Of a stretch of DNA of 64,000 bases, positions 12,992 to 28,232 are shown one piece after another. Source of the DNA: a virus (Duplodnaviria > Caudoviricetes); IMG/VR virus record IMGVR_UViG_3300008259_002957. One strand, written 5' to 3'. Made by a program: the position numbers and the translations under genes. Position 1 is the first letter of the stretch; each line of letters begins with the position of its first letter. The notes below the pieces were generated by a model that was given only the letters and a program-made list of their open reading frames with translations, ran no database searches and was not told where the DNA came from.

Positions 12992-13285
12992 TTAACTGCC
13001 CAACAATGGATCATCCGCCCAACGTATAATACAATAGTCTAATAAACTTCTAGCATGAGCAGCCGAAATTCTAAACCATTCCCCGCGAGTTCTATACGGA
13101 CCCAACTCAAAATGCACTTTACGCTCTAATAGACGAACACGCGATCGATCTACCCGTACCGTATAATACACACGCAATGGCAGAGGATATCCTGTTTGTA
13201 AACTTCTACATCTACTCTCAGGATCCGTACTATAACCTATCTTAACCACACTCTCAGAAACATCACACACTATATACAAAAACAT
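12992..13285 (-). CDS. GIY-YIG-like T5orf172/MUG113 domain protein
   Basis: FLYIV...VKIGYSTDPESRCRSLQTGYP...LERKVH...RGEWF. Confidence 0.85.
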   Translation of the reverse strand: MFLYIVCDVSESVVKIGYSTDPESRCRSLQTGYPLPLRVYYTVRVDRSRVRLLERKVHFELGPYRTRGEWFRISAAHARSLLDYCIIRWADDPLLGS

Positions 13286-13562: not shown

Positions 13563-13873
13563 AATACTATATATCAGGGAGATGGTATAAGCCTGTGATA
13601 CCGCTGTATAAAGAGCGACTGTATAGAATGAAACGATTGGTGAGAAAGCGAATAAAATGGTTTGAAAAGGTTTGGAGAGAAACTGAAAAGTATTTACACA
13701 TAGCCTCTCAGGACCTCAGCCAAAGGTTTAAAAAACTGTTATAACCGTATGATCATAATAGAGCAATCAGAAAAAACCACGTCATACGGTGTCTAACGAC
13801 ACGCCGATCGGACCCTGATGACAAGCCTCTCTAATAGGATCAATGGGTCAGCAGCGGGTCTAACTACGCAGTA

Positions 13874-14473
13874 TAAGTGTTTGATCGTGTTGGATTTTTT
13901 TATACAGTGAGATCACGGGCTTATAAGTCATTGATCGTGTTGAACTTTTTCTACTATACAATTCAAGGGGTTACTAAGTCATTGAAAAGATTCGGAAATT
14001 TTTTCTTGTTTGATTTCACAGACTTAGGCGGAATGGTATTTGTCAATGAGTTTAAATGGTTACATTCGGGGTGGTGGTGGTGCTAAGTCATTGAAAACGT
14101 TGTGGGGAGGTGGAGACTGTATACTGTGGCGGAATTGTGGGGTGGCACAATGGGGCAATTTGGTGGATGGTTTAACGTTAAACCAATTTGGCAGGATGGT
14201 TTAGTGTTAAACTATCGTGGAGGAAATGGTTTAATGTTAAACCTTCTCCCGCGGGTGGTTTAGAGTTAAACCTTACAACCGGAGGTTGTGAGATGGTTTA
14301 ATCATTAAACCATAGGTTCAGGGTTCGGCGACCCTCGCGTTCCCTACTCGGTGCGTGTCCGCACACCTTTCCTGGCCTCACTTACAGTATAACACATCTT
14401 GCCCCGAACGCAACCAGAAGTGATCTAACAAAATCAATGACTTACAAAATAAATTTTTTTTCTAAGTCGTTGA
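13874..14473. repeat. TAAGT(C/G)(A/G/T)TTGA repeats
   Basis: Direct copies at 13874, 13924, 13975 (about 50-bp period), 14084 and 14463; inverted copy at 14434-14444. Confidence 0.85.
14169..14311. repeat. Array of five palindromic GGTTTA-N4/5-TAAAC(C) elements
   Basis: Starts at 14169, 14198, 14228, 14257, 14295; the first copy GGTTTAACGTTAAACC is a perfect palindrome. Confidence 0.9.
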
Positions 14474-14556
14474 GATTGTTGGAGACTTTGTGCTTGCATA
14501 TACGTGTAGACAGTGTATAACTAACACATAGAGGGACATACAAGAGGGAACACACA

Positions 14557-14745
14557 ATGACATTCCATCAACAAGTAGCCAAGTTCGTAGCCAACAACCT
14601 CAACCGAGACGCAGACCGCTATGAACAGATCTGGAGCATCAAGAGCGCACTGCTCGCACACGGTTATCAACTGCTGGCAACAGACAGAGAGACCATTGAC
14701 AGTGTGCTAGACGTTCTGTTCAGAGAACACAATTTCTCAGCATAA
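14557..14745 (+). CDS. Early hypothetical protein
   Basis: Own promoter cassette and GAGGGA RBS. Confidence 0.75.
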   Translation: MTFHQQVAKFVANNLNRDADRYEQIWSIKSALLAHGYQLLATDRETIDSVLDVLFREHNFSA

Positions 14746-14811
14746 ACCGGTTGACAGTGCCCTGCTCATGTGCTATTGTATATGAGTAGGGCAACACAAG
14801 AGGGAACGAAG

Positions 14812-15096
14812 ATGGGATACTTTCTTTACGATCGGCACGACACTCGCATCGTCAGCAAGGAGTACAAGACTCACGCCGCCGCTCAAGCTCAACTGACTCG
14901 GATGGGCAAGGGTCAATTGCAAACAGATCCTAATCATCCAATCTACTGTTACGGCGTCGCAGAGAAAGAGTACTACTTCCGTCACATTGAGCGCAAGGTT
15001 GTGCGAGTTAACTTGATGAGCGGTGTTGAGTACGAGGAGAGTGTGAACACGCCGTTGGCTTGCTCGCCTGCTTCGGAAACCTACTGGAGCATGTAG
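14812..15096 (+). CDS. Early hypothetical protein
   Basis: MGYFLYDRH...; ends TPLACSPASETYWSM; own cassette. Confidence 0.8.
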   Translation: MGYFLYDRHDTRIVSKEYKTHAAAQAQLTRMGKGQLQTDPNHPIYCYGVAEKEYYFRHIERKVVRVNLMSGVEYEESVNTPLACSPASETYWSM

Positions 15097-15162
15097 AAAC
15101 TGGTTGACACGGCCAGCGGGTCGTGTTATAACTGTGACATAGGGCAACACAACGAGGGCACG

Positions 15163-15354
15163 ATGGAAAGCAAACCGTTCTACGTCAAGCAAGACTTTGT
15201 CAAACTCCTGCGTCAGAAGCGCGGCACAGAATACACCATTGGCTGGTTGGCTATGGCTTACTCCATGCCGCCCGTGCCCGAAGCACAGGAGATGGAGATC
15301 ATCCAAAAGGAAATCCCCGTCCTGCAGGCTTTGCCGGACTACGACGGCATCTAA
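15163..15354 (+). CDS. Early hypothetical protein
   Basis: Own cassette, GAGGGC RBS. Confidence 0.75.
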   Translation: MESKPFYVKQDFVKLLRQKRGTEYTIGWLAMAYSMPPVPEAQEMEIIQKEIPVLQALPDYDGI

Positions 15355-15426
15355 GAGGTTGACAGCACAGACTAGACGTGCTATAACTAACACATAGAGC
15401 AACACAGTGTAGAGGGAATATACACA

Positions 15427-15837
15427 ATGGGAACTCGTTCAACTATTGGGATCCAGAACGCAGACGGCACTGTCACTGGCATCTACTGCCACTGGGACGG
15501 CTACTTGAGCCACAACGGCCGAATCCTTGCTGAGAACTACACGGACGAAGACAAGGTGCGTAAGTTGATCGGTCTTGGCGATATCAGCAGCCTGGGACCG
15601 CACATTGGCAATCAGCACGACTTTGACAATGCTCCTACGCTGTCGTGCAATGCTTACGGTCGCGATCGTGGCGAGAAGGATGTTGCTGCTCGCACTCTGC
15701 ACAACTGGCGTCAGTTCTGTGCTGAGAACGGGCAGGAGTATGACTACCTGTTCACTCCTGGTGCTGGCTGGCAGGTTCGCACCTACAACGGCATCTACGA
15801 CCTTGCTCGTGCATTGGCAACAGAAACCGTAGAATAA
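15427..15837 (+). CDS. Early hypothetical protein (widespread phage family, MGTRSxIG...IYCHWDGY)
   Basis: Recognisable N-terminal motif; own cassette. Confidence 0.85.
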   Translation: MGTRSTIGIQNADGTVTGIYCHWDGYLSHNGRILAENYTDEDKVRKLIGLGDISSLGPHIGNQHDFDNAPTLSCNAYGRDRGEKDVAARTLHNWRQFCAENGQEYDYLFTPGAGWQVRTYNGIYDLARALATETVE

Positions 15838-15900
15838 TGGTTGACACAGCCCTGCTCATGTGCTATTGTATATGAGTAGGGCAACACAAGAGGGACTGAG

Positions 15901-16140
15901 ATGTACAAGATCTATGGCGACTATGGTTACACCAGCGAATGCCTGCTGCATGAAGCTGACACTCGTAGCGAAGCCCTGCGTTGGGCAGACCGTTACACTG
16001 CCGACGACTTTGGCGGCTATGCTGTGATTGATGTTGCGGTTCACCTCAGCAACGGCGAATACAGCACCATCCAGACCTACCGTGCAGAAGACTACGAGTA
16101 CGAAGGCGATGACGATTTTGCGCTGATTGATGAATTCTAA
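15901..16140 (+). CDS. Early hypothetical acidic protein
   Basis: Own cassette. Confidence 0.75.
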   Translation: MYKIYGDYGYTSECLLHEADTRSEALRWADRYTADDFGGYAVIDVAVHLSNGEYSTIQTYRAEDYEYEGDDDFALIDEF

Positions 16141-16209
16141 GGTTGACAACCACTGTAGATGTGTTAGTATGTGTGAGTAGAGAGAAACATAGCAGAGAGG
16201 GAACACGCT

Positions 16210-16575
16210 ATGACCAACGCTATCGCAATCCGCAACGAAATGCTGGAACAGGCTGCAACCGTTGCCACGGACTATGTTCGTGAGTGGACTGCTAAGACGG
16301 GCGGCAATGCCTACGGTGAACCCATGTATTGCGGCTTCGCTTGGGTCACTGTATATCCTCAGCACAAAGGCAACACCCGCGACGGCAAAGCTGAGCGCAA
16401 GGTGCTGGAAGACATGGGCTTCCGCAAAGACTGGACGGGCAAGGCTTACGAATACTGGAACCCCAGCAAGTGGGGCGGGCAGAGCATGGATGTAAAGGAA
16501 GCAGGCGCTCGTGCTGCCGCTGACGTGCTTCGCAAGTATGGATTCACTGCCTACGCTGGTTCGCGAGCAGACTGA
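16210..16575 (+). CDS. Early hypothetical protein
   Basis: CGFAWV...GGQSMDVKEAGARAAADVL; own cassette. Confidence 0.8.
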   Translation: MTNAIAIRNEMLEQAATVATDYVREWTAKTGGNAYGEPMYCGFAWVTVYPQHKGNTRDGKAERKVLEDMGFRKDWTGKAYEYWNPSKWGGQSMDVKEAGARAAADVLRKYGFTAYAGSRAD

Positions 16576-16646
16576 GGCAGAAAGAGGTTGACAGGGCGGC
16601 AACGCCCTGTTATAACTAACACATAGGGCAACAAGGAGACGACGAG

Positions 16647-16880
16647 ATGGCACGTTCGATTCGCGAAATTACCAACCGTATCTATGAAGCCGTTGACGAA
16701 GGCGTGCTGACTTGGCAGCAGATTGCCGAAGCCGCTCTGACGTATATGAGCGAAAGCGATGTGGCTGACATGGCTCACAACGAAGAGTTCTTCATGTATG
16801 AAGACGAGGAAGAAGACGAGGAAGAGTGGTCGCCCTACACCGCAGACTTCAATGACAAAGGTTCCATCCACCACTACTGA
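16647..16880 (+). CDS. Early hypothetical acidic protein
   Basis: Own cassette. Confidence 0.75.
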   Translation: MARSIREITNRIYEAVDEGVLTWQQIAEAALTYMSESDVADMAHNEEFFMYEDEEEDEEEWSPYTADFNDKGSIHHY

Positions 16881-16953
16881 TTTTGGTTGACACACCCCTA
16901 CTTGTGTGCTATAACATACGAGTAGGGCAACACTGCTAGAGGAGCACAAGCAG

Positions 16954-17349
16954 ATGGCATACGGTGATTTCGTTACTGAGGTTGGTGAAACGGTTGGTAT
17001 TGTTCGTCAACATCGCCACGGCACGATCTTGATGAGCCGCTTTGGCACTGTAACCAAAGTCAACGGACACGGACACATCTTTGTCCAGTGCGAAGACCGG
17101 GAGTATCGCTTCACCAAGACGGGAGATGCTTACAAAGACTCCTACGGTCCTAGTTTGATGCAGGCTGCTAAACTGCGTATGATCCAGGAGAGTGAGACTC
17201 GTCGCAAGGAGCAGGTGCGTGTGGCTCGTGCTATGGAGCAGACGCTCAAGGAGGGATACTCCTATGCGGGTCGCTTCTTCCCCACCGCAGAGCGTATCGC
17301 GGCTCTGAAAAATCTTTTGTCAGAGTTGGAAAATCTGGTTGACCATTGA
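16954..17349 (+). CDS. Early hypothetical protein
   Basis: Own cassette; 3' end runs through the next -35 box. Confidence 0.75.
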   Translation: MAYGDFVTEVGETVGIVRQHRHGTILMSRFGTVTKVNGHGHIFVQCEDREYRFTKTGDAYKDSYGPSLMQAAKLRMIQESETRRKEQVRVARAMEQTLKEGYSYAGRFFPTAERIAALKNLLSELENLVDH

Positions 17350-17395
17350 GTCAACCAGTGCTATAACTAACACATAGGGCAACGAGGAGCACACG

Positions 17396-17581
17396 ATGAA
17401 CGACGCAAGAGCAGAACAGTGGCAGCGGCTGATCGACCTGCTTGACGAAGCAGATGCGATTCAGCAGAAACTGCTGGGCGACGAGGATGCTGCGGCGTGC
17501 TATGAGTTCCACAATCAGTTGAACAACATGGCCGACGAGTTCACTGACTTGGCCAACAAAGATGGCTACGAAATCGGTTGA
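17396..17581 (+). CDS. Early hypothetical protein
   Basis: Own cassette; TGA stop lies within the next TTGACA. Confidence 0.75.
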   Translation: MNDARAEQWQRLIDLLDEADAIQQKLLGDEDAAACYEFHNQLNNMADEFTDLANKDGYEIG

Positions 17582-17642
17582 CACTGTAGACTAGACGTGC
17601 TATAACTAACACATAGGGCAACACAGTAGAGGGAACTACAAG

Positions 17643-17912
17643 ATGCTGACACTGGAACACACCGTCCGTTCGTACGCCGGCAAGCCTGGCTGCATGTGCG
17701 GCTGCAACGGAGTCTACAACGAAGGCGACCGTGCTCGCAAGATGGCGCTGACGGCGCTGCTGAAGAACCCAGAGGTTCGCTTGCAGGCTTGGAAGCCCAG
17801 CGATGATGCTGGTTGCTTGTTTGTTGAAACTGATACTCGCAACCGTGTGCTGTACCTCACTGAAGCAGGTGTAGCCGCTGCCCGTGCTATGGGCGTGAAA
17901 GAGGAGAAATAA
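17643..17912 (+). CDS. Early hypothetical protein
   Basis: YAGKPGCMCGCNG motif; own cassette. Confidence 0.75.
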   Translation: MLTLEHTVRSYAGKPGCMCGCNGVYNEGDRARKMALTALLKNPEVRLQAWKPSDDAGCLFVETDTRNRVLYLTEAGVAAARAMGVKEEK

Positions 17913-17913
17913 G

Positions 17914-18156
17914 ATGTCTGTTATGGAACTGTTGAAGACTGCTTTTCCGCGCACCAAGAGCACCAAGCACACTGCGTTCTGCGAACGTATCCCAATGGTG
18001 GTTTTTGAACTTGTGGAAGAGCAAGTGCGGACTGAGATGCGGGCAAAAGGTTATGTCACTCGCTATCGTGGGCCGCGTGTGAGCAATAACACCTACGGCA
18101 ATCCTACAACCACTCGGCGCTGCGACGCAACTCATGTTCTGCTCTATCGCAAATAA
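17914..18156 (+). CDS. Early hypothetical protein
   Basis: Second cistron with GGAG RBS. Confidence 0.7.
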   Translation: MSVMELLKTAFPRTKSTKHTAFCERIPMVVFELVEEQVRTEMRAKGYVTRYRGPRVSNNTYGNPTTTRRCDATHVLLYRK

Positions 18157-18217
18157 TGGTTGACACAGGTCACGATTCGCGCTATAACTAACACACAACG
18201 AGGCAATGGAGGGTAAC

Positions 18218-18772
18218 ATGCCGAACTGGTGCAATAACTCAATTGAAATCGAAGGTCCTGTAGAGAAGATTGCTGCACTGTGGGCTGAGGCTTCCGCTGG
18301 CGGCGAAGGCGCGGCTCTGCTCAATGCTCTGTGTCCGATGCCAGCAGAACTCTTAGAAGGTGAAGCCTGGTATGGCTGGCGTGTGGCACACTGGGGAACC
18401 AAGTGGGACATTGACATGCAAGGTCTCGAGTTTGTTGACAACGAACAAGGTCGTGCCTGTATCACAGGTTGGTTTGATTCGGCTTGGAGCCCGCCTGTTG
18501 ATGCGTTCCAGTCTTATGCTAATGAGAATCCTGATGTAGACATGGAACTCAAATACTTCGAGCCCGGCATGTCGTTTGTAGGTGTTTGGGATAGTGAAGG
18601 TGGTGATGCCTATTGGGATGGCGTTGGCGAGTTGCTGGACACCACTGAAGAGCAAGACGCTGTTCTGTTTGAACTGTTGGAACACTTTGATGTGGCCGGT
18701 TGGTTCGAGACTGACGAAGAAGAGAACCTTGAGATCGACCTTGACGGCGGTGTGAGTGCCATCAACGAATAA
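18218..18772 (+). CDS. Api92/YubB-like ferredoxin-like domain protein (DUF1281-like)
   Basis: MPNWCNN...WYGWRVAHWGTKWD...FDSAWSPP...YFEPGM. Confidence 0.85.
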   Translation: MPNWCNNSIEIEGPVEKIAALWAEASAGGEGAALLNALCPMPAELLEGEAWYGWRVAHWGTKWDIDMQGLEFVDNEQGRACITGWFDSAWSPPVDAFQSYANENPDVDMELKYFEPGMSFVGVWDSEGGDAYWDGVGELLDTTEEQDAVLFELLEHFDVAGWFETDEEENLEIDLDGGVSAINE

Positions 18773-18841
18773 TAATGGTTGACACACCCCTACTCGTGTG
18801 CTATAACATACGAGTAGGGCAACGCTGCTGAGGAGCACACG

Positions 18842-19117
18842 ATGGCACGTAAGACGATCGAAGTTGGCAAGATACTGCGGATGGCTAACACCTTCCTTGC
18901 TGCAACTAACACCCGCGACGACGAGCGTGAAGGCGTGTGTGCGCTGCTGGAGGCTGTGCTGTTTGAGTCGGGCAACTATGAAGGCTTCCGCTATTTGGAA
19001 GGCAGTGACTATCCGGAAGAAGTTCCAAGCGGTAGCCGCCGCTTCTACTTCGCAAGCAAGACTGTGCTTGCAGATGAAGCAGAGGAACTTCGCAACGTCA
19101 ACCGCATCCGTGTGTGA
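18842..19117 (+). CDS. Early hypothetical protein
   Basis: Own cassette. Confidence 0.75.
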   Translation: MARKTIEVGKILRMANTFLAATNTRDDEREGVCALLEAVLFESGNYEGFRYLEGSDYPEEVPSGSRRFYFASKTVLADEAEELRNVNRIRV

Positions 19118-19127
19118 GGAGAACCGC

Positions 19128-19292
19128 ATGAACCCTTTGGCTTTTTTTGCAATGGTAGGGTTTGTACTGTTGCTGATCGTCAGCACCGCAGCCTACACCT
19201 TTTCCAAATGCGGCTGGTATGCCTTTGCACTGGGCAAAGGTGCTGGGATGGCTGCCGTCACTGGCATGTGCGATAAACTCAACGAGGAATAA
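19128..19292 (+). CDS. Small membrane protein
   Basis: MNPLAFFAMVGFVLLLIVS..., GAGGAG RBS. Confidence 0.6.
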   Translation: MNPLAFFAMVGFVLLLIVSTAAYTFSKCGWYAFALGKGAGMAAVTGMCDKLNEE

Positions 19293-19293
19293 C

Positions 19294-19413
19294 ATGGACT
19301 GGACTATTGAAGAATACCTAGCGTTCGAACAGCACCTGTTGGAACAAGCAGAAAAAGATGCAGACGATTATGAGATTCCGGTTGACGAACCTGTCTACTG
19401 GTGCTATAACTAA
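19294..19413 (+). CDS. Small acidic protein overlapping the next promoter
   Basis: MDWTIEEYL...VDEPVYWCYN; GAGGA RBS; last codons encode the -35 and -10 boxes. Confidence 0.5.
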   Translation: MDWTIEEYLAFEQHLLEQAEKDADDYEIPVDEPVYWCYN

Positions 19414-19440
19414 CACATAGGGCAACAAGAGGACCACAAG

Positions 19441-19722
19441 ATGAACAACTTTGCAACCGCCATCACTGCAATCCACAAGATGGACAACGACGAACTGAAC
19501 GCTGTGGTTCGTGCAATCAAAGACCGCCGCACCTATCTTGCTCGTCAGCAGGCTGTGACCTTTGCTGTGGGCGACCGTGTGTCGTTCGCTGCTCGTGGTA
19601 TGCAGGTGCTGGGTACCGTTACCAAGATCAACATCAAGACCGTCCAAGTTCGTCAGAGCAACACTGCTACGGTTTGGAAAGTCCACGCAAGCCTGCTCCG
19701 GCCAGTGAAAGAAATGGCTTGA
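19441..19722 (+). CDS. Early hypothetical protein (SH3/KOW-like C-terminus)
   Basis: FAVGDRVSF...GTVTKINIKTVQV...WKVHASLL. Confidence 0.8.
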   Translation: MNNFATAITAIHKMDNDELNAVVRAIKDRRTYLARQQAVTFAVGDRVSFAARGMQVLGTVTKINIKTVQVRQSNTATVWKVHASLLRPVKEMA

Positions 19723-19775
19723 CAGGTTGCTGTATACGTGCTATAACTAACACATAGAAACACAAGAGGGACACG

Positions 19776-19964
19776 ATGAAAGATTACATGACACTGATCG
19801 CAGTCATTGACCGGTTGGGCGATATTGCAGAACTTCCGTCAGCTAAGATCCGCGAAGCACTGGATCAATACATTGCTCAGTTGGAAACAGAGGTTGCTTA
19901 TGTTGAACGAGAGATGGAACGTGAACACCAGATCGATGTGATGTTCGAGAACGTGCCAGTATAA
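19776..19964 (+). CDS. Early hypothetical protein
   Basis: Own cassette. Confidence 0.75.
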   Translation: MKDYMTLIAVIDRLGDIAELPSAKIREALDQYIAQLETEVAYVEREMEREHQIDVMFENVPV

Positions 19965-19967
19965 ATA
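19960..19967 (+). promoter_or_regulatory. T4-type late promoter for the tRNA cluster
   Basis: TATAAATA 6 nt upstream of the first tRNA. Confidence 0.6.
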
Positions 19968-19973
19968 GACAAC

Positions 19974-20049
19974 GCCCGGTTAGCCCAAAGGTAGAGGCAA
20001 CAGACTTAAAATCTGTCAAGCGTCGGTTCGACCCCGACACTGGGTACCA
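19974..20049 (+). tRNA. tRNA-Leu(UAA) with short variable loop
   Basis: Hand-folded cloverleaf: acceptor GCCCGGT/ACTGGGT, anticodon arm ACAGA-CTTAAAA-TCTGT, T arm GTCGG-TTCGACC-CCGAC, ACCA end. Confidence 0.9.
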
Positions 20050-20055
20050 AACATT

Positions 20056-20132
20056 GGGGGATTAGCTCAATTGGTTAGAGCGTCGGACTCATAATCCGCA
20101 GGTTATCGGTTCAAGTCCGGTATCCCCTACCA
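20056..20132 (+). tRNA. tRNA with CAU anticodon (Ile2 or elongator Met)
   Basis: TAGCTCAATTGGTTAGAGC D arm, CTCATAA loop, GGTTCAAGTCC T arm, CCA end. Confidence 0.92.
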
Positions 20133-20134
20133 TA

Positions 20135-20211
<77 letters not shown>

Positions 20212-20229
20212 ACTTTACAAGAGAGCAAG

Positions 20230-20637
20230 ATGAGTTACACTGAAAAGACTATGGTCGCTGGTGAAGCAGAGATCATCTACACCACCTTCTCCTACTGGAA
20301 CTTGGTGTTTGGGTTTGGCATTGGCCTTGCCCTTGCTCCGATCACCCTTGGTTTGAGTATGCTGTTCGCACTTGCGGCTGTGCTGGATCACTACTTCACA
20401 GAGTATTCCATTACCACAAGGCGTGTGTTGACCAAGCGTGGTGTGATCCGGCGGCGGGTGAGTGAAGTGAACATCCGCAAGGTCGAAGGTGTTTCGGTGC
20501 GTCAAACGGTGCTGGGACGCATCTTGGGTTATGGTGATGTGATCGTGCGTGGCACTGGCACAGAGCATTTGACCATCCGGATGGTGCAGGCCCCGCTGTT
20601 AGTGAAAGTTTCTATCCAGAATCAGGTTGACAAGTAA
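20230..20637 (+). CDS. Bacterial PH-domain (bPH_2) membrane protein
   Basis: TM segments, then EYSITTRRVLTKRGVI...IRKVEGVSVRQTVLGRILGYGDVIVRGTG. Confidence 0.85.
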   Translation: MSYTEKTMVAGEAEIIYTTFSYWNLVFGFGIGLALAPITLGLSMLFALAAVLDHYFTEYSITTRRVLTKRGVIRRRVSEVNIRKVEGVSVRQTVLGRILGYGDVIVRGTGTEHLTIRMVQAPLLVKVSIQNQVDK

Positions 20638-20682
20638 GTGTGTCTGTCGTATAGTATACAAGTAGGCAAAGAGGGAAGCAAC

Positions 20683-21684
20683 ATGTCTAACGTTAAATTT
20701 CTTGATGGTACTTTTAAACTGCGCGGCAAAGATGTAGATATGTCGGGCATGGTTCTGCCCATGTTGGAAGGTTTTAAGGTTGGTGTTCGTGGCGGCTACG
20801 TGACTGTGGATGGTAAGGCAGTCCCTGGGTTTCCTGATCGTGCGATTAAGGTGTATGTTGCAGGTGCAGGCTCGGTTGAAGAGACCGAAGACTCCGTGGC
20901 CGCCACTGCCAGAGAAGAATCCGACGAAGAAGTGATTGAACGACTGCGTGAACGCTTTGATATGCTGTCGGACATGACCAGAGCAGTCAAGCGCGGCGAA
21001 GTACGTGCTATGATCGTAAGTGGTCCTCCGGGCGTGGGCAAGAGCCACGGTGTTGAAGAAGTTCTTGATCGCTACAAGATGATGGAGACTCTTGGTGCTG
21101 CCAAGACTCACGAAGTTGTCAAAGGTGCTATGAGTGCGTTGGGTCTCTATGCCAAACTGTTCAAGATGAGTGCTCCAGGCAACATTGTTGTGTTTGACGA
21201 CTGTGACAGTGTGTTCTCAGACGAACTGAGCCTGAACATCCTCAAGGCTGCACTGGACTCAAAGAAGACTCGTACTATCCACTGGAACACTGATAGCCGA
21301 CTGTTGCGTCAAGAAGGTATTCCAGGTTCGTTCAAGTTTGAAGGTAGTGCTATCTTCATCACCAACTTGAAGTTCGACAAGGTCAGAGGTAAACTGCGTG
21401 AACACCTTGCAGCATTGGAATCACGCTGCCACTATATCGACTTGACCATTGACACTGATCGTGAGAAGATGCTGCGTATCCAACAGATCGTTCGTGACGG
21501 CATGTTGGATGAATATGAGTTTGACGAAGAAATGCAACAGGAGATTGTTGACTTCGTTGATGTGAATAAGAAGCGACTGCGCGAACTTTCCCTCAGGTCC
21601 GTGCTCAAGGTCGCCGACTTGGCAAAGGCCTTTCCTACCAAATGGGAAGCCGTTGCCGAAAGCACTGTGATGCGTCGAGACTGA
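20683..21684 (+). CDS. P-loop (AAA-like) ATPase conserved in T4-like phages
   Basis: Walker A GPPGVGKS, Walker B VVFDDCD, IFITN, ALESRC. Confidence 0.85.
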   Translation: MSNVKFLDGTFKLRGKDVDMSGMVLPMLEGFKVGVRGGYVTVDGKAVPGFPDRAIKVYVAGAGSVEETEDSVAATAREESDEEVIERLRERFDMLSDMTRAVKRGEVRAMIVSGPPGVGKSHGVEEVLDRYKMMETLGAAKTHEVVKGAMSALGLYAKLFKMSAPGNIVVFDDCDSVFSDELSLNILKAALDSKKTRTIHWNTDSRLLRQEGIPGSFKFEGSAIFITNLKFDKVRGKLREHLAALESRCHYIDLTIDTDREKMLRIQQIVRDGMLDEYEFDEEMQQEIVDFVDVNKKRLRELSLRSVLKVADLAKAFPTKWEAVAESTVMRRD

Positions 21685-21699
21685 CTCCGCATCACAGTA

Positions 21700-21840
21700 T
21701 GCTACACGGACCGCCCTCATCCGTGTAGCAGCCCAGGTAGACAGTGTGCCCTCGCTGGTCTACCGACTACGGAGAAGCGTCGCCCTCACGCCCTCTCCAC
21801 AGTGCCCTAGCAGGATGCCCTCCCTGCTAGGGCTTTTTTA
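21700..21840 (+). ncRNA. Candidate cuckoo-like sRNA: four hairpins, each with GCCCUC in the loop
   Basis: Stems 21700-21710/21720-21730, 21736-21746/21753-21764, 21771-21780/21788-21798, 21804-21814/21823-21833; ends in a U-tract. Confidence 0.75.
21804..21840 (+). terminator. Rho-independent terminator (also the last hairpin of the candidate sRNA)
   Basis: GCCCTAGCAGG-atgccctc-CCTGCTAGGGC-TTTTTT. Confidence 0.9.
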
Positions 21841-21923
21841 TTGCAATCGCAGTCTTAGAGGTTGACAGGGCGGAACTGCTGTGCTATACATAACAAGTAA
21901 GCAACGCATAGAGGGAATACACA

Positions 21924-22223
21924 ATGCGTAAAGTTACTGTCCTCCGCAAGTTCCAAACTGTTAAAGCAATGCGCGACTGTATTGCTGCTTATACTGCAAA
22001 TGTTTTTGCAGACGAACTGCGCGAAGCTGCTGTTGCAATGTATGCAAATGACATTGCGAGAGCTGTTGTTGCGCTTAACGAGTTTATTAGAACGAGTGAC
22101 GCTGTTGCATTGCACAAGCGTATTATGTATTGGGACACAGACGTGCGGGAAGCATTTGTTAGCGTGTTGCACTACATAGAGCAAGAGCAAATGGTGCCTG
22201 CTACGGAGTTTGCTGTGCTGTAA
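21924..22223 (+). CDS. Early hypothetical protein (largely YC-free)
   Basis: Own cassette; no TC/CC between 21954 and 22197. Confidence 0.75.
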   Translation: MRKVTVLRKFQTVKAMRDCIAAYTANVFADELREAAVAMYANDIARAVVALNEFIRTSDAVALHKRIMYWDTDVREAFVSVLHYIEQEQMVPATEFAVL

Positions 22224-22290
22224 CAACGAGGAGTTGACAGCACAGTCTATCCGTGCTATACAATACAAATAGGGCAACAAGGAGCACACC

Positions 22291-22491
22291 ATGTCTAATG
22301 CACGTCTTGCAGAAATTGCTGCAAAGCACAGCGCAGCAATCCACGTCTACAAAACCACAGGAGAAATTGACAGCACGTCAGATCTCTACTTTGAAGTATA
22401 TGAATATTTCGCAAACGAAATGGACTCTAAAGTCCGCCGCAGTGCTGCACGCCAGTTTGACTACATAACAGAAAAAATCCGCAGCCTGTAA
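22291..22491 (+). CDS. Early hypothetical protein
   Basis: Own cassette. Confidence 0.75.
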   Translation: MSNARLAEIAAKHSAAIHVYKTTGEIDSTSDLYFEVYEYFANEMDSKVRRSAARQFDYITEKIRSL

Positions 22492-22558
22492 GAATGTGGT
22501 TGACACAGCCCTGTAGATATGCTATAACGTATGAGTAGGGCAACAAAGGACAACACCA

Positions 22559-22738
22559 ATGATCAAGATTACTATTCCAGCAGTGTCGGTTCGCGAAGCA
22601 GTCGACATCCGCGACAGAATTCAGGGCGTGATCCTTGTGAAGGGTGAGACGGCTGTGATTGGCGATGGCGGTGTTGTGATCACCACAGACAATCCTGTGC
22701 GTGTGTGCCTTGAACTGCAAGGCGATGGCTTCATCTAA
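22559..22738 (+). CDS. Early hypothetical protein (59 aa, not in the ORF track)
   Basis: Read by hand: MIKITIPAVSVREAVDIRDRIQGV...LQGDGFI*; own cassette. Confidence 0.7.
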   Translation: MIKITIPAVSVREAVDIRDRIQGVILVKGETAVIGDGGVVITTDNPVRVCLELQGDGFI

Positions 22739-22893
22739 CCCCGGCCAGGCGGGCTAAGTCATTGAAAACAATGGCAAATTTTTCTCGCACAAAAATGCTA
22801 AGTCGTTGTTTTTAAACGAATCATTTTGCTTGCAAACTGTGCTGCATAGTGTATAACTGTACTTGTAAGCAACACAGCAGAGGGAAACACGCT

Positions 22894-23100
22894 ATGCAAA
22901 ACACAGTTAAACTTGTGGACGTTGAGTATAACTATAAAAGCGAGCTTTGCGCTACGCTTACAAACAGCGTTAAAGCTGTGCGCTGCGAGGACGTGCTGTA
23001 TTTGGACTTTGTAAGCTATGCTGCAATGTGTGCAGTATACGAGGAGTGGTGCGAGCTTGCGGACGCGGGCGAAGAGGGTTATTTTTACGTAGCAGCGTAA
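22894..23100 (+). CDS. YC-free island ORF 1
   Basis: MQNTVKLVDV...; GAGGGA RBS; no Pro. Confidence 0.75.
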   Translation: MQNTVKLVDVEYNYKSELCATLTNSVKAVRCEDVLYLDFVSYAAMCAVYEEWCELADAGEEGYFYVAA

Positions 23101-23198
23101 AAAAACTTGCAGCACACAGCACTTTTTAGTTGACAAGTGCTGTGTGCTGTGCTATACATAACTTGTAAGCAACACAGCACAGCAGAGGGAAACACGCT

Positions 23199-23486
23199 AT
23201 GCAAAACACAGTAGCAAATACAGCAAATACTAATTACGTTTTTGTAATGCTTGATGACGCTACAAACGCAATTGTACTGCGTATTAATAAAACTGTTGAC
23301 GTTTTTTGTAATAGTGCAAACGACATAATTGCTGCATTTAAACAATATAATATTACGGACTGCGACACTATTATGTGCAGCAGTGACGTGGATTTTGCTA
23401 CGGAGTTTGACTATGCGTACGACAGTGCAGTACACGACATGCTTGACGAAGCTTTTGACGCACTAAATTTTAAACAATACGTTTAA
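23199..23486 (+). CDS. YC-free island ORF 2
   Basis: MQNTVANTAN...; no Pro, Gly or Trp. Confidence 0.75.
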   Translation: MQNTVANTANTNYVFVMLDDATNAIVLRINKTVDVFCNSANDIIAAFKQYNITDCDTIMCSSDVDFATEFDYAYDSAVHDMLDEAFDALNFKQYV

Positions 23487-23576
23487 AAAAACAGCAGCAC
23501 ACAGCACTTTTTACTTGACGAGTGCTGTGTGCTGTGCTATAACTTACACACGGGCAACACACGAGAGGGACTGCAC

Positions 23577-23768
23577 ATGACACGCGAAGAACTGTTTGCT
23601 AAAATTGCTGCAATTGCTGCTGACGCATACGACAGCACGGATGCTGACGAAGTGCAAAGCTGGGATGCATACGAAGCAGCGAAACAGATTGTTATTGCAA
23701 TGCAGACGGTTGGCTACGACATAACATATATGTTGGAGCAAATTGAGGAAGACGCTGACGAAGCGTAA
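23577..23768 (+). CDS. YC-free island ORF 3 (acidic)
   Basis: MTREELFAK...; no Pro. Confidence 0.75.
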   Translation: MTREELFAKIAAIAADAYDSTDADEVQSWDAYEAAKQIVIAMQTVGYDITYMLEQIEEDADEA

Positions 23769-23864
23769 CACAAAAAAAACTTGCAGCGCACAGCACTTTT
23801 TACTTGACGAGTGCTGTGTGCTGTGCTATACATAACTTGTAAGCAACGCAAGAGGGAACACGCT

Positions 23865-24152
23865 ATGCACACAGTAATTGCAGAATTTTTGCAGTGTTTT
23901 GCAGCATATATGCAGCATGTAGCCGCGCTAGCGGACGACACGGAACTCGAGCCCGCGGATGCGGAAGACGCTGTTAAAATTGCACAGCAACTTCCTTTGC
24001 TGTATGCAGTTGTTTACAGTCCCCGTGCAGCACAATGCGCTGCGCTTGATGCGCTAGAAGTCGACTGCATTAACATGCTCGACACCAACGTGCGCGATTT
24101 CTTTGCTAACCTGTATACTGTTAACGCACTGTTCCGCAGCAACGAGTTGTAA
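23865..24152 (+). CDS. Island-edge ORF 4
   Basis: MHTVIAEFL...; same promoter family as the island ORFs. Confidence 0.7.
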   Translation: MHTVIAEFLQCFAAYMQHVAALADDTELEPADAEDAVKIAQQLPLLYAVVYSPRAAQCAALDALEVDCINMLDTNVRDFFANLYTVNALFRSNEL

Positions 24153-24239
24153 TAAAAACTTGCAGCACACAGCACTTTTTACTTGACGAGTGCTGTGTGC
24201 TGTGCTATACATATTGCATAGGGCAAACAGGAGGGCAAG

Positions 24240-24380
24240 ATGAAGATTCAAATTAAAGCCGAAGACATCCAGCGCCGCGATCCGGTTGCTCGTGCATTGG
24301 CAGACAGTCGGTTCCAGCCTCGCACTGTGCGTGACAGAACCAAATACACCCGCAAACAGAAACACCGCAAAGCCTACTAA
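24240..24380 (+). CDS. Small basic ArfA-like protein (46 aa, not in the ORF track)
   Basis: Read by hand: MKIQIKAEDIQRRDPVARALADSRFQPRTVRDRTKYTRKQKHRKAY*. Confidence 0.6.
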   Translation: MKIQIKAEDIQRRDPVARALADSRFQPRTVRDRTKYTRKQKHRKAY

Positions 24381-24404
24381 GGCCCCGCTGTTAAGGAGAT
24401 CGAC

Positions 24405-24581
24405 ATGACTTTCTACCATTACTTCAAGACCGTGTGCCTCTTGCTTGCTAGCCTTGTGGCGTTCATTGCAGTGATTAGCCCCGAGACTGTGGGCAAATGG
24501 CAGGCCCGCAAAGACGTTGCCTACGACAGTATCTGGATCGAATGGATCAGTGACTGTGATTGCACAGAGCCACTGGAGTAA
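24405..24581 (+). CDS. Small membrane protein
   Basis: Read by hand; AAGGAG RBS; one hydrophobic segment. Confidence 0.6.
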   Translation: MTFYHYFKTVCLLLASLVAFIAVISPETVGKWQARKDVAYDSIWIEWISDCDCTEPLE

Positions 24582-24670
24582 GCGACTTTCCGCTTACTGC
24601 GGATAAAACCCGTTGACTCACCTGTAGATCATGCTATAAGTATAATACGAACGACAAAAAGGAGAAACCA

Positions 24671-25270
24671 ATGCGGATGATTCACATCCTCGGCGGCGTC
24701 GCTTCTTCAGCCGTGATCGTTGCAATGGCAGTGGTTTACTTGACGGCAGATGAGGCAAAAGCAGCCGTTGACCCCGTAGAAATCGTATATGTTGACCGAG
24801 TAGTAGAACGAGTGGTGGAGCGTGTGGTGCATGTGCCCATGCCCACCAGACCTGGCCAAGATCCTGAGGCTATCTTTGCTGATGCCGGCACAGAAGACCT
24901 ATACTGTCTAGCACAGAACATCTACTTTGAAAGCAGAGGCGAGAGCAAGGTAGGCCAAGAGTTTGTAGGTTGGGTTACACTGAACAGAGTTCAGAACTCA
25001 GACTTCCCCAGCGAGATCTGCAGGGTAGTGTGGCAGGACAGCCAGTTCTCATGGACACATGACGGCAAGAGCGACCAACCACGAGATGCTGCGGCTTGGG
25101 CAACAGCACAGACCATTGCCCTTGAAGTGGTGCAGGCCTATGGTGTAGAACGTGATCCAACCGAAGGCGCAACCTACTTCCATGCTACCTCAGTCCGACC
25201 TAGTTGGGCCAAGAAGTTCGAACGTGTGGTACAGATCGATAACCATATCTTCTACGTAGATAGAGGTTGA
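24671..25270 (+). CDS. Cell wall hydrolase, SleB/Hydrolase_2 family
   Basis: CLAQNIYFESRGE...VTLNRV...QFSWT...DPTEGATYFHA...V.P.WAK...IDNHIFY. Confidence 0.92.
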   Translation: MRMIHILGGVASSAVIVAMAVVYLTADEAKAAVDPVEIVYVDRVVERVVERVVHVPMPTRPGQDPEAIFADAGTEDLYCLAQNIYFESRGESKVGQEFVGWVTLNRVQNSDFPSEICRVVWQDSQFSWTHDGKSDQPRDAAAWATAQTIALEVVQAYGVERDPTEGATYFHATSVRPSWAKKFERVVQIDNHIFYVDRG

Positions 25271-25325
25271 CACACTGGTTGCCCTGTGCTATACATAACG
25301 TATAGGGCAACACAGGAGACACCAG

Positions 25326-25526
25326 ATGTGGCAAGTAAGAACACAGTTCTCCAAACCTAACGCAGACAATCCTACTGGGCCTTTGGAGTGGAACGCGGTG
25401 TTGGTGGCGACAGAAGCAGAAGCAGAAGCATGGTGGCACACTCGGACCACAGTGAAGAGTTCTGCTCGTAGAGTCTGCACCATGTTCGATCCTGAAGGAA
25501 ATTTAGTTAGAGTCCTGTTCAAATAA
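25326..25526 (+). CDS. Early hypothetical protein
   Basis: Own cassette. Confidence 0.7.
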   Translation: MWQVRTQFSKPNADNPTGPLEWNAVLVATEAEAEAWWHTRTTVKSSARRVCTMFDPEGNLVRVLFK

Positions 25527-25592
25527 CGGTTGACAACCCAGTTGCCCTGTGCTATACATAACACATAGGGCAACACAACAACGAGGCACAAG

Positions 25593-25664
25593 ATGAAACT
25601 TCCGATCCTGCTTTCCGCAATTATGATTGCTGTCGCTGCACATCACTACTTCACTTTCGCCTAA
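25593..25664 (+). CDS. 23-aa hydrophobic peptide
   Basis: MKLPILLSAIMIAVAAHHYFTFA*, directly after a cassette leader. Confidence 0.45.
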   Translation: MKLPILLSAIMIAVAAHHYFTFA

Positions 25665-25676
25665 GGGGGCTGCGCT

Positions 25677-25865
25677 ATGCTGAACTCACAAGAACTCACA
25701 GAGCGTGGTTGGAACATCTATCGTTCCAACAACTGGATTGGTCGTCATCGTGAAACTGGTCGGAAGATCACTGCTGGCACACACCTCACCCTGCTGCACC
25801 TGCTGAACTACGAAGAGTGGCAGAACTCGCAAACTTGGAGCACCGTGCTGGAACAAACTGGTTGA
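25677..25865 (+). CDS. Early hypothetical protein
   Basis: AAGGGGG RBS; stop within the next TTGACA. Confidence 0.65.
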   Translation: MLNSQELTERGWNIYRSNNWIGRHRETGRKITAGTHLTLLHLLNYEEWQNSQTWSTVLEQTG

Positions 25866-25924
25866 CAGCACACCAAACAGATGTTATAGTTAACGCATAG
25901 GGCAACACACTAGAGGGCAAACAC

Positions 25925-26326
25925 ATGTATACCTTTGATGAACAGATTGTTAGCGACCTCCACAAGGACGCTCGCGGCTATCGTCCGGATGAGTACTTCT
26001 GGGAAGAGTGGAGCCAGTGCGGCGACCTTACTCGTCAATCCATGTGGGACAACCTGCTGGAGGAACTGGCAGCGGAGACAGCACGGCAGCGGGACGCTTA
26101 TGCTCGTGCAGAGATCCACTTCCACCAGCGTGTCCAAGGCACTATGTTGGCAGGTGCCGAAGACGAACTCACTGCCATCCGTTGGATCCTTGAGGCCGAA
26201 CAGTTCACTAACTCGGACTTGGCCTACGGTTCGGACTATGTGGCTTGGCACTTTGGACTGCCCTACAAAGGCGAATTTGATCAGCAGATCCAGACTGTGA
26301 TCACGGCTATGGAGTCTGAGAACTAA
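25925..26326 (+). CDS. Early hypothetical protein
   Basis: MYTFDEQIVSDLHKDARGYRP..., a common phage N-terminus; own cassette. Confidence 0.8.
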   Translation: MYTFDEQIVSDLHKDARGYRPDEYFWEEWSQCGDLTRQSMWDNLLEELAAETARQRDAYARAEIHFHQRVQGTMLAGAEDELTAIRWILEAEQFTNSDLAYGSDYVAWHFGLPYKGEFDQQIQTVITAMESEN

Positions 26327-26395
26327 GTGGTTGACACAGTGTAACGGCCGTGCTATACATACGACATAGGGCAACACACTAGAGGGACTACACCA

Positions 26396-26758
26396 ATGAT
26401 GAAGTATGCAATCCTGTTCTCCATCCTTGCTTTTCCAGTGTTTGCACACAGCGGCGGTCTCGATCGCAACGGCTGCCACAACGACAACATCAATGGTGGA
26501 TACCACTGCCATCGTGAATCATCCAACAGCGAAGTTGCTCACAACGACAACAACGACCTTGAACGGCTGTTGATGGGTATCGTGGCTGTTGGTGTTATTT
26601 CTGCTGCGATTGCTCCTCAATCAGAACCTGTGTACCACCAGCCCGCAGTCCGTGCATGTGTGGTTGAAGAAGTAGAGTATACTCCGACTCGCGTTTACGT
26701 GGCAGTGATCGATACTTGTGCTGGACACATCCTAGATCAATATTCCTACAATCGCTGA
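26396..26758 (+). CDS. YHYH-domain exported protein
   Basis: Signal peptide, then HSGGLDRNGCHND...YHCH. Confidence 0.8.
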   Translation: MMKYAILFSILAFPVFAHSGGLDRNGCHNDNINGGYHCHRESSNSEVAHNDNNDLERLLMGIVAVGVISAAIAPQSEPVYHQPAVRACVVEEVEYTPTRVYVAVIDTCAGHILDQYSYNR

Positions 26759-26828
26759 ACTAAGTGGTTGACAACCCTGCTCAAGCCTGCTATACATAAC
26801 ACATAGGGCAACACAAGAGGAACACACC

Positions 26829-27080
26829 ATGAACCTTAACGCACAGAACATCCAGAAGATTCAAGCCATGCTGCGTAACGTTGCAGAAGTAGACCCCAAC
26901 GACATCATCTCCAACCGTGCAAGCCAACTGGCTGTGGACTTGGAACTGGTGCGTGTTCCGTTCCTATACGAAAGCCTTACAGAAGCAGAACGCATGTTGG
27001 TACAGTATGCTATCAGCAAGCGTGACGTGTATGTGTTGCGCCCAGACGCAAGACATGCTGTGAACCTCCAAGCAGCCTAA
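26829..27080 (+). CDS. Early hypothetical protein (last cassette)
   Basis: Own cassette. Confidence 0.75.
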   Translation: MNLNAQNIQKIQAMLRNVAEVDPNDIISNRASQLAVDLELVRVPFLYESLTEAERMLVQYAISKRDVYVLRPDARHAVNLQAA

Positions 27081-27607
27081 TCCGACACTGCGGCCCGACT
27101 CCTTAATGAATGTATACAGAACTTCCGCAGTGTTGGACAACCTGCGGATTTTCTCTTGAGGTCAGGTATGAGAAAATAAAAAATTTTTCTTTGGGGTGGT
27201 CGCTTAACAAACAATATATTGACACACACATACGCTAGCGTAACACCTGGTGTTGCCCGATCACCACCTCAAAACTATAAGTACTTCTCTATAATTTTTC
27301 TCGGCAGATTTTTTTACTCTGGTAGAACCCCTTCAGGGAATCGTATCTCCACAGCCACGCATCGTGCCGCAGTGTATTCCTCTGCTCTGCTTTCACACTC
27401 CGCTAGAGTTTTATGCACTGTGTCTGCAGTCAATCCATTCACAGTCAGTATCAGCAGTATCCACCACATTGTTCACCCTCCAAAAACAACCTCACTGAGT
27501 ATTTAAGTACTCCAGCAAATTTTTTTGCTGCAAAATTTTTTCTCCCGCAGCAACCCCTCCAGCGTAGAGTTGGTTGACACCCAACCAAGGTATGTTATAC
27601 TGTGTGC

Positions 27608-27859: not shown

Positions 27860-28232
27860 TGTGGATACTCATTGATTCCCAGGACTACTACACTACAAAA
27901 ACAGAGTTTGAGCAGCGTGAGATTGAATACATCAATCCCTGTCTCAACCTGTTTGCTCCGTACGCAATAGAAGCATTGCAACCTTGTTAGCCTTGCGAGA
28001 TGGTTGTGCGATAGAGTTCTCTGTTGGATTGCAGCGTGTACTTGAAAATTTTACTGTGCATCCCAAGCGTATTGTGAAAATGGTGTAAAATTCGAAACCC
28101 TGTCATACGGCCCCTAGCGGCGTGTCGTTAGACGCCTAGCGACGTGGTTTTGTATTTTCGGTATTTTTATACAGCGATAGTACTACGATGGCTGATCGGT
28201 GTCGGTTGGTGTTGTAAACTGTGAAAATTTTG

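Follow-up and report, generated by a model that had tools for sequence, protein, structure and literature searches.

The 64,000-nucleotide (nt) stretch of viral DNA analysed here, which we refer to as the window (IMG/VR record IMGVR_UViG_3300008259_002957; Duplodnaviria, Caudoviricetes), contains between positions 14,494 and 27,080 a run of 29 units in which a promoter, a leader and a start codon follow one another, every one of them on the plus strand. A scripted catalogue, together with a reading of 14.3-28.6 kb, confirmed that this promoter-cassette array is real and that its units occur far above chance. We consider it likely that this array is an early region of the host-takeover type, built as one contiguous cassette array of the kind described as PeSLs (promoter-early stem-loops), and that its cassettes are shuffled via the units they share. 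The kind itself is known; here it occurs in a new and environmentally abundant clade of jumbo phages, with variant features of its own, i.e., a private Shine-Dalgarno (SD) sequence with a complementary RNA, a partition of codons and tRNAs, and the contiguity of the array.

A contiguous array of promoter units on one strand

The array carries 35 open reading frames (ORFs; g01-g35, 23-333 amino acids) and three tRNA genes, and six of the ORFs (g11, g14, g15, g18, g28 and g32) have no promoter of their own. Each unit runs from a -35 box through a 17-nt spacer with a terminal TGn (extended -10) to the -10 box, and from there through a leader of 27-40 nt, counted between the last -10 base and the ATG, to an SD and a start codon, which stand at the 3' end of all 29 units. 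The -35 reads TTGACA in 19 of the 29, mostly with GG just 5' of it, and TTGAC[A/G/C/T] in 27, while two units (14494 and 22830) carry CTTGCA. At the -10, TATAAC is found in 13 units and TATACA in 10; the last position is C or A in place of T in 23/29 units, which is why a standard sigma70 scan misses most of them.

The counts of individual motifs are markedly skewed towards the array. TAGGGCAAC occurs 17 times on the plus strand (16 within the array, each in the leader of a unit and followed by a GAGGG-type SD) and never on the minus strand. GAGG lies within the SD window of 27/35 array genes, compared with 7/49 non-array genes of the window, and GAGGG within that of 18/35 and 2/49, respectively. 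GGTTGACA was counted 19 times, on the plus strand only, against an expectation of 2.4, and the strict pattern TTGAC-N15-TGnTATA gave 21 matches, again on the plus strand only and confined to 15.1-26.8 kb, where 0.04 were expected.

The intergenic space consists of the unit alone: no more than 12 nt separate the upstream stop codon from the -35 in 20 or more of the 28 cases, and in six or more the stop falls within the promoter, often as the TGA of TTGACA. GC content is ~50% across the array and 36-43% in the flanks. A single strong terminator lies inside the array (21804-21840), and a terminator-like hairpin also follows the last gene (~27083-27150). A reading made earlier from the letters alone (hereafter the sequence-only reading) had described about 29 one-promoter-one-gene cassettes in one orientation, with a near-consensus sigma70 promoter and a common leader, an intergenic space that is essentially the repeat, and one clear terminator; the counts above bear this description out, with the six promoterless ORFs and the hairpin after g35 as additions.

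The spacers are 14/14 identical across four units, and other pairs agree at 13, 12 and 11 of 14 positions; the positions common to non-adjacent units are ones that promoter function leaves unconstrained. Most promoters are bridged by contigs from independent studies with 0 mismatches, and a contig from JGI (L071) matches 22720-26272 at 99.1%. As independent contigs bridge the repeats without mismatch, the cassette order is not an assembly artefact.

The units are listed below, each named after its gene and all on the plus strand, together with the ATPase gene that serves as an anchor in comparisons.

14494-27080: whole array; 29 units, 35 ORFs, 3 tRNAs, GC ~50%
14494-14556: P-g01, first unit of the array; variant CTTGCA -35 and TATAAC, with CTAAGTCGTTG 5' of the promoter
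14751-14811: P-g02; hairpin around the -10 (one arm in the spacer, one in the leader), spacer of the same family as P-g05
15104-15162: P-g03; promoter and leader
15359-15426: P-g04; spacer 10/14 as P-g10; the g04 cassette is placed elsewhere in relatives
15841-15900: P-g05; hairpin around the -10, spacer 12/14 as P-g02
16143-16209: P-g06; 16-nt spacer, TAGTAT
16588-16646: P-g07; GC hairpin within the spacer
16887-16953: P-g08; hairpin around the -10, spacer 13/14 as P-g13
17339-17395: P-g09; the -35 forms one hairpin arm; overlap with the g08 stop
17578-17642: P-g10; promoterless g11 downstream
18160-18217: P-g12; cargo with DUF1281_C
18779-18841: P-g13; hairpin around the -10, promoterless g14 and g15 downstream
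19382-19440: P-g16; sits within the 3' end of g15
19719-19775: P-g17; promoter and leader
20627-20682: P-g19; unit in front of the conserved AAA ATPase gene
20683-21684: g19, AAA ATPase (phrog_1250); the sole array gene kept in all relatives, used as anchor
21862-21923: P-g20; promoter and leader
22234-22290: P-g21; hairpin around the -35
22500-22558: P-g22; hairpin around the -10
22830-22893: P-g23; second CTTGCA-type promoter, with two CTAAGTCRTTG copies 5' of it
23099-24239: P-g24 to P-g27; four tandem 78-nt units (family D4), spacers 14/14 identical, 14-bp stem around the -35
24613-24670: P-g29; cargo a Hydrolase_2 cell-wall hydrolase with an N-terminal transmembrane segment
25267-25325: P-g30; hairpin GTTGCCCT/AGGGCAAC around the -10
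25530-25592: P-g31; hairpin type as P-g30; a 23-amino-acid hydrophobic peptide, then g32
25862-25924: P-g33; promoter and leader
26331-26395: P-g34; promoter and leader
26768-26828: P-g35; final unit

Cassettes are scrambled among relatives and exchanged within the unit

A scan for the array ATPase returned 37 viral contigs and a motif scan 54 further stretches, drawn from two collections, and many of these relatives show the array architecture of the window. The leader is homogeneous within each lineage: the window's group has TAGGGCAAC, another group TGTATATA and a third one TATAAT-A.ACACAT. Such homogeneity by lineage amounts to concerted evolution of the units inside a genome. Genome-wide motif counts, a check proposed with the sequence-only reading and made here on two large relatives, placed 6/8 strict matches inside the array of a 330-kb, 93%-complete relative and 4/5 inside that of a 256-kb contig; being confined to the array in both, the unit belongs to the module and not to the genome at large.

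Gene order among relatives had been set beforehand as a test of shuffling. What emerged was not conserved synteny but scrambled cassettes beside a colinear flank, with the junctions in the units. One relative (L014) contains 17/35 cargo genes, all on one strand, and keeps 6/16 adjacencies, its order being g09 g08 g10 g04 g13 g16 g19 g02 g29 g30 g27 g28 g06 g24 g25 g20 g21. In another (L089), g04 and g09 are missing at their window positions and present elsewhere, and at the junctions of these two genes the overlap between alignments comprises a single promoter unit. The 20 kb of right flank, by comparison, are colinear with both large relatives at 65-81% identity, which is the same divergence as that of the cassettes. 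Mosaicism is visible at the scale of single cassettes as well: g31 of a further relative (L069) is 95-100% identical to that of the window next to neighbours of ~75%, and g24-g25 of L014 are 88% identical compared with 70-80% elsewhere.

To locate the exchanges within the unit, we compared 76 distinct ortholog pairs, which are phylogenetically non-independent and from which a 99%-identical strain was left out. The upstream regions of orthologues proved chimeric. Where the upstream neighbour differed (n=59), identity was 0.30 in the spacer and 0.56 over the 12 nt before the ATG; where it was the same (n=17), the values were 0.69 and 0.58, with a null of 0.29 and 0.40 (spacer identity, same versus different neighbour, p = 1e-8). 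By these figures the spacer goes with the upstream gene and the ATG-proximal leader with the downstream gene, which places the crossover in the -10/leader core that units share. The g31 cassette of L069 illustrates the pattern, as its protein and proximal leader are 100% identical to those of the window and its spacer is unrelated.

Natural variants were sought by comparing contigs of four lake-metagenome runs, from four studies, with 10-30 kb of the window at a likeness threshold of 88%. Alternative cassette joints at ORF borders were present in 4/4 runs examined. They lead from the end of g04 to the ATG of g13 (three runs), from the end of tRNA-Arg to the ATG of g33 (two runs) and from the g07 leader to the ATG of g32, as well as backwards, from the end of g32 to the ATG of g04 (25857 to 15427), from the g10 leader to g01 (17633 to 14552) and from the g35 leader to g33 (26814 to 25925). 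Circles, tandem duplications and a co-occurring strain with its genes in another order would all account for the backward joints. In phage RB49, PeSL mini-circles were sequenced and have their crossover at the matching spot, between the -10 and the SD (PMC2839356). Scrambled order, junctions in the -10/leader core and natural joints together support the earlier proposal of the repeat as a unit of homology through which cargo is gained, lost and reordered. Family searches of the array and of ~7 kb to its left and right detected neither an integrase of the tyrosine-recombinase type nor another recombinase family.

Several smaller observations concern the same units. Over the proximal leader and first five codons, g23 and g24 are 97% identical (22870-22907 and 23175-23212), while their promoters differ and the ORFs are otherwise unrelated; the shared stretch is a recombination seam just within the coding region. 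Two population variants were seen in the runs: an 82-nt insertion at 13827 (13827/13828) in two runs, with a related 99-nt replacement in a third, and a 12-nt in-frame deletion at 24794 in the hydrolase gene g29, in two runs. The motif CTAAGTC[A/G]TTG occurs five times, on the plus strand only (13974, 14083, 14462, 22754 and 22798), and the last copy of each group precedes a CTTGCA-type promoter (14494 and 22830), a promoter class also present in L014 and L067; the motif may mark the starts of sub-arrays or a second promoter class. An exact 13-mer, GGCCCCGCTGTTA, occurs six times in one orientation on both sides of the array border (11698, 12982, 13307, 13367, 20589 and 24381).

Hairpins at the promoters

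Compared with shuffled sequences, 13/29 promoter regions fold with z < -2, as against 0/24 controls, and the remaining 16 units have no clear stem. Seven of the hairpins lie around the -10, with one arm in the spacer and the leader motif as the other, five to six around the -35 and one to two in the spacer. PeSL subclasses are defined by stem-loop position, between the boxes, over the -35, over the -10, upstream or downstream (PMC2839356), and the positions found here are among those listed. Across all loci, spacer and leader can form a perfect stem of 7 bp or more in 45/327 distinct promoters, compared with 15.1 when leaders are permuted (~3-fold), and arm sequences vary between orthologues with pairing maintained. 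Hairpins that are conserved and covary contain nearly half of the promoters. A T-run follows none of these hairpins, and a strong terminator score was obtained at 21804-21840 only; a terminator function is therefore not evident.

Cargo, codon usage and timing

As the sequence-only reading had it, the cargo is mostly unannotated, with 28/35 array ORFs lacking a Pfam family. The annotated cargo includes an AAA ATPase, a cell-wall hydrolase, a bPH_2 membrane protein, DUF1281_C and DUF7230. None of the 35 ORFs matched a known anti-defence family. No paralogy was found among the array ORFs at E <= 0.01, g23 and g24 sharing only the leader and first five codons described above (family D5). The most widely shared cargo genes are g04, g06, g12, g16 and g19; atlas look-ups of g04 and g06 returned viral clusters only and no family.

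Codon usage sets the array genes apart. Their GC content at third codon positions is 0.56, compared with 0.33 in 15 other genes; UUA makes up 1% of Leu codons in the array and 19% elsewhere, AGA 9% and 39% of Arg codons, and AUA 3% and 27% of Ile codons. The array genes thereby shun the codons decoded by the array's own tRNAs.

19974-20211, plus strand: tRNA-Leu(TAA), tRNA-Met/Ile2(CAT) and tRNA-Arg(TCT); TATAAATA upstream at 19960

This avoidance fits translation of the array genes ahead of the phage tRNA supply, and suggests that the array provides tRNAs needed by later genes. The tRNA cluster has no sigma70-type promoter of its own; directly 5' of it (19960-19967) stands the T4-late-type TATAAATA, further copies of which precede minus-strand flank genes (12977 and 30575). 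Phage PA5oct uses the host RNA polymerase, and its terminal repeat of small genes is transcribed early (PMC7318152). Because they combine host-type promoters with codons that avoid UUA, AGA and AUA, we infer that the array genes are transcribed right after infection by unmodified host polymerase. The leader was also considered as a T7-like promoter (CACATAGGG) for a single-subunit RNA polymerase of the phage; the 93%-complete relative gave no match to PF00940, control genomes were uninformative, and the idea was dropped as unsupported.

A multi-hairpin RNA and the private Shine-Dalgarno sequence

The ATPase gene is followed at its 3' side by 156 nt that fold into a row of hairpins.

21685-21840, plus strand: four hairpins with GCCCUC-type loops, the last being the one strong terminator of the array; the stems vary in relatives

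A multi-hairpin RNA with variable stems is also present in L089, L014, L007, L010 and ~28 other loci. Among 32 relatives, GCCCU or CCCUC occurs in 57/88 post-ATPase hairpin loops, compared with 1.6/58 in shuffles. A second clade has AUUCGCUCC in its loops and GGAGCG as its cassette SD, so that in both clades the loop is the reverse complement of the cassette SD hexamer (GCCCUC/GAGGGC; CGCUCC/GGAGCG). Counted at the SD position, GAGGG[AC] and GGAGCG occur 100 and 6 times in the GCCCUC-loop clade, to which the window belongs, and 2 and 46 times in the CGCUCC-loop clade. This covariation of loop and SD across clades argues for pairing between them, though it may rest on one evolutionary switch. 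An Rfam search at E <= 0.1 returned the three tRNAs only, and no family for the hairpin RNA.

Module borders and a possible terminal repeat

The depth of exact-match contigs in the array is ~2x that of flank contigs in three of four runs (12-21 versus 7-10 in X4, 11-13 versus 5-6 in X16 and 9-16 versus 5-7 in X20), with steps near 13.83-14.07 kb and 27.16 kb, a doubling that a terminal repeat would explain, and that sharing of the array among co-occurring strains could produce too. A 40-nt imperfect inverted repeat (~34/40) brackets the module, each arm forming a hairpin with a T-run in the outward direction, like a pair of insulating terminators.

13772-13811, minus strand: left arm of the inverted repeat, 40-nt imperfect, terminator-like in the outward direction
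27083-27150, plus strand: long hairpin, then short stem with T-run, after g35; contig depth drops to 1x nearby; likely end of array transcription
28114-28152, plus strand: right arm of the inverted repeat, terminator-like hairpin with T-run

Just 5' of the first promoter, at 14169-14311, lie four to five palindromes of the form GGTTTA-N-TTAAACC with a period of ~29-30 nt, which may be an operator, iteron or packaging-related array. The notion that the PA5oct ATPase lies inside the terminal repeat of that phage does not agree with the gene numbers: gp34-gp105 are assigned to the repeat (PMC7318152), and the ATPase is gp126.

Taken together, these properties allow a tentative picture, which we hold to be rather doubtful as a whole: an array written in host codons would carry the tRNAs (for UUA, AGA and probably AUA) on which the AT-rich middle and late genes depend, and would thereby license late translation, a phage-made anti-SD RNA would control the early class, and the module would form a terminal repeat. 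These three linked properties, i.e., the codon/tRNA partition, the anti-SD RNA and the terminal repeat, are not described for PeSL regions.

Identity and distribution of the phage

The large terminase is 54% identical to that of the Pseudomonas jumbo phage PA5oct, and the g19 AAA ATPase 48% identical to its PA5oct homologue. The phage is an uncultured freshwater jumbo myovirus of a PA5oct-related clade. A megablast search of the array against 50,697 phage records gave tRNA matches only, and hence no close cultured relative. Twenty freshwater runs from 14 studies contain 66-98% of the sequence words, and RNA runs contain 5-9% of sampled sequence words.

The flank genes are opposite in strand to the array and encode tail fibres, a virion protein, DnaB, a RecA/UvsX-like protein (53015-54088) and a T4-type large terminase; nothing ties the RecA/UvsX-like gene to the array. 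Most window genes that lie outside the array have no SD, and their upstream regions are A-rich, so that translation initiation signals differ between the array and the rest of the window. Near the left border of the module lie genes for an HNH endonuclease (9445-9975, minus strand) and a T5orf172/MUG113 (GIY-YIG-like) protein (12992-13285, minus strand). A class I/II aminotransferase gene, called an ALA synthase in the sequence-only reading, occupies 7801-9045.

As to the host, the -10 consensus of Caulobacter RpoD is GCtANAWC (PMC8144410). GCTATAAC fits that consensus, but a Caulobacter-like host is doubtful, as 10 units have TATACA and relatives have TATAnT. Similarity of the tRNAs to those of cyanophages and the weak SD use of the non-array genes are hints in another direction.

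Mechanism and alternative explanations

In the mechanism that we propose, a control unit of ~60 nt abuts the previous stop; in it, a strong -35 and an extended -10 are followed by a conserved, initially transcribed leader with a strong SD. The unit would be read by RNA polymerase with the host's primary sigma factor and would drive one or two small genes, mostly ORFans. The 30-60 nt of sequence shared between units would be a substrate for the homologous recombination of the phage, by which ready-to-express cassettes could be deleted, inserted (possibly via circles) and exchanged with no integrase involved. Of the further proposals in the sequence-only reading, a polymerase sink for host take-over, dependence of the exchange on UvsX/UvsY and anti-defence functions of the cargo are speculative.

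A number of points weigh against this account. With nothing but the repeat between genes, any rearrangement that keeps the ORFs must break there, and selection alone could place the breakpoints. The joints seen in metagenomes come from short contigs with sides of 20-58 nt and a likeness threshold of 88%, and some of them may stem from related phages or from assembly across repeats. At 65-90% identity, the relatives do not allow individual events to be reconstructed, and the ortholog pairs of the junction analysis share part of their history. On the side of expression, promoter activity and timing are read from the sequence, a -10 without its final T (23/29) would weaken an E. coli-type promoter, and a cell-wall hydrolase is not a typical early function.

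Might the repeats, then, be strong early promoters under selection for expression and nothing else, with ordinary recombination, illegitimate or homologous, in a dispensable region supplying breakpoints that selection filters? The unit being all there is between genes, viable breakpoints would be forced into it, the best-conserved positions are those that a promoter needs, and the HNH and T5orf172/GIY-YIG-like endonuclease genes near the left border could stimulate exchange. We nevertheless regard this explanation as unlikely, given that unconstrained spacer positions are identical or nearly so in non-adjacent units, that each junction leaves a whole, chimeric unit whose exchange point falls after the spacer and before the proximal leader, and that the leader is homogenised per lineage, as is expected of mutually recombining repeats. 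A site-specific system of the integron type, in which the hairpins would be the sites of a dedicated recombinase, would account for co-oriented cassettes and for structures of variable sequence and constant position between them, which are somewhat attC-like. It is very improbable, however, as no integrase or recombinase family was detected in or beside the array, a significant hairpin is present in only 13/29 units, and exchange takes place in the region of sequence identity and not at a fixed stem site. Still less credible is an artefact of metagenome assembly in the order or structure of the repeats: many related contigs do end inside the array, a sign that assemblers struggle there, yet the bridging contigs of independent studies, the 99.1% match of the JGI contig and the units themselves, which differ enough for unique placement, all speak against it.

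A further possibility is compatible with shuffling via shared units, and we give it serious weight while stopping short of favouring it. The conservation of leader and SD could be mainly regulatory, TAGGGCAAC and GAGGG[A/C] forming a private tag that the hairpin RNA recognises, whereby early translation would be switched off as a block. The enrichment of GAGGG in the SD windows of array genes, the excess of complementary loops in the 32 relatives and the joint switch of loop and SD between clades all agree with such a tag. Against it, pairing would amount to only 5-6 bp per loop, and to 5 bp for most SDs of the window, which read GAGGGA; the clade switch may be a single evolutionary event; and the RNA itself comes from an early promoter, which leaves the timing of the shut-off unexplained.

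Comparison with known systems

Like integron arrays, the window has co-oriented single-gene cassettes between structured repeats, with a content that varies among relatives. Unlike them, it gives each cassette its own promoter, has neither an integrase nor an attC-type site, and exchanges via sequence identity. Bacillus phage SPO1, with the host-takeover module of its terminal redundancy, and T5, with its pre-early region, offer another likeness, namely ~10-13 kb of small early genes at a genome end, nearly each with a strong host-type promoter and an SD. These are unrelated phages of unrelated hosts, and we know of no described role of their promoters as exchange points.

The hairpin RNA recalls RNAIII and the Rsa RNAs of S. 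aureus, whose UCCC loops pair with SD sequences: in both cases several hairpins carry a short C-rich loop complementary to the G-rich ribosome-binding sites of a set of mRNAs. The RNA of the window differs in being encoded by a phage, in making up the 3' terminus of an early mRNA and in having the phage's own cassettes as presumed targets. Should the link between SD class and complementary RNA prove real, it would represent a mechanism of temporal control that is new for phages.

PA5oct, the closest cultured relative by terminase (54%) and array ATPase (48%), has its early region in a 39-kb direct terminal repeat (PMC7318152). There, too, a long co-oriented block of small genes of no known function, with tRNAs, begins at a divergent junction beside structural genes and is transcribed early by the host RNA polymerase, according to the PA5oct data. 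PA5oct was rejected as an example of the window's architecture: its homologous block is made of tightly packed operons with few promoters, the genes around the ATPase homologue forming overlapping operons, and it lacks the repeated unit, the raised GC and the hairpin RNA after the ATPase.

The closest match is with the PeSLs of the T4-type phages RB49/phi1, T4/PST and KVP40/nt-1 (PMC2839356; PMC4122927). Both have a near-consensus host-type promoter with a stem-loop between the boxes, over the -35 or over the -10, then an SD and ATG; both stand directly 3' of the upstream stop and before ORFans in a hyperplastic region; and in both, genes are gained, lost and exchanged between relatives at the units, with crossovers between the -10 and the SD. 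The analogy drawn in the sequence-only reading thus holds for promoter, hairpin positions, SD/ATG, genomic setting and the location of indel and exchange end points in the units. There are differences. The window holds one contiguous array of 29 units in 12.6 kb, whereas ~51 PeSL units are spread over several regions. It has no AT-rich stretch upstream of the -35, because the ORFs abut the -35; an A-rich upstream consensus is present in the relatives L007, L009, L010 and L022. Its -10 (TATAAC/TATACA) lacks the final T, and the fixed leader motif TAGGGCAAC and the private SD are additions. A clear hairpin occurs in only 45% of its units, none with a T-run. Finally, the window phage belongs to a PA5oct-related freshwater jumbo clade.

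PeSL shuffling was reported for a small number of T4-type phages in culture, with enterobacteria and vibrios as hosts (PMC2839356; PMC4122927). According to our analysis, a PeSL-like architecture is the dominant layout of the early region in a widespread clade of freshwater jumbo phages, far removed from the T4-type phages, and the array yields a list of 35 early proteins, most of them unknown, with a ranking by breadth of sharing. The evidence from natural populations supports promoter cassettes as a general, integrase-free means by which large virulent phages trade accessory genes.

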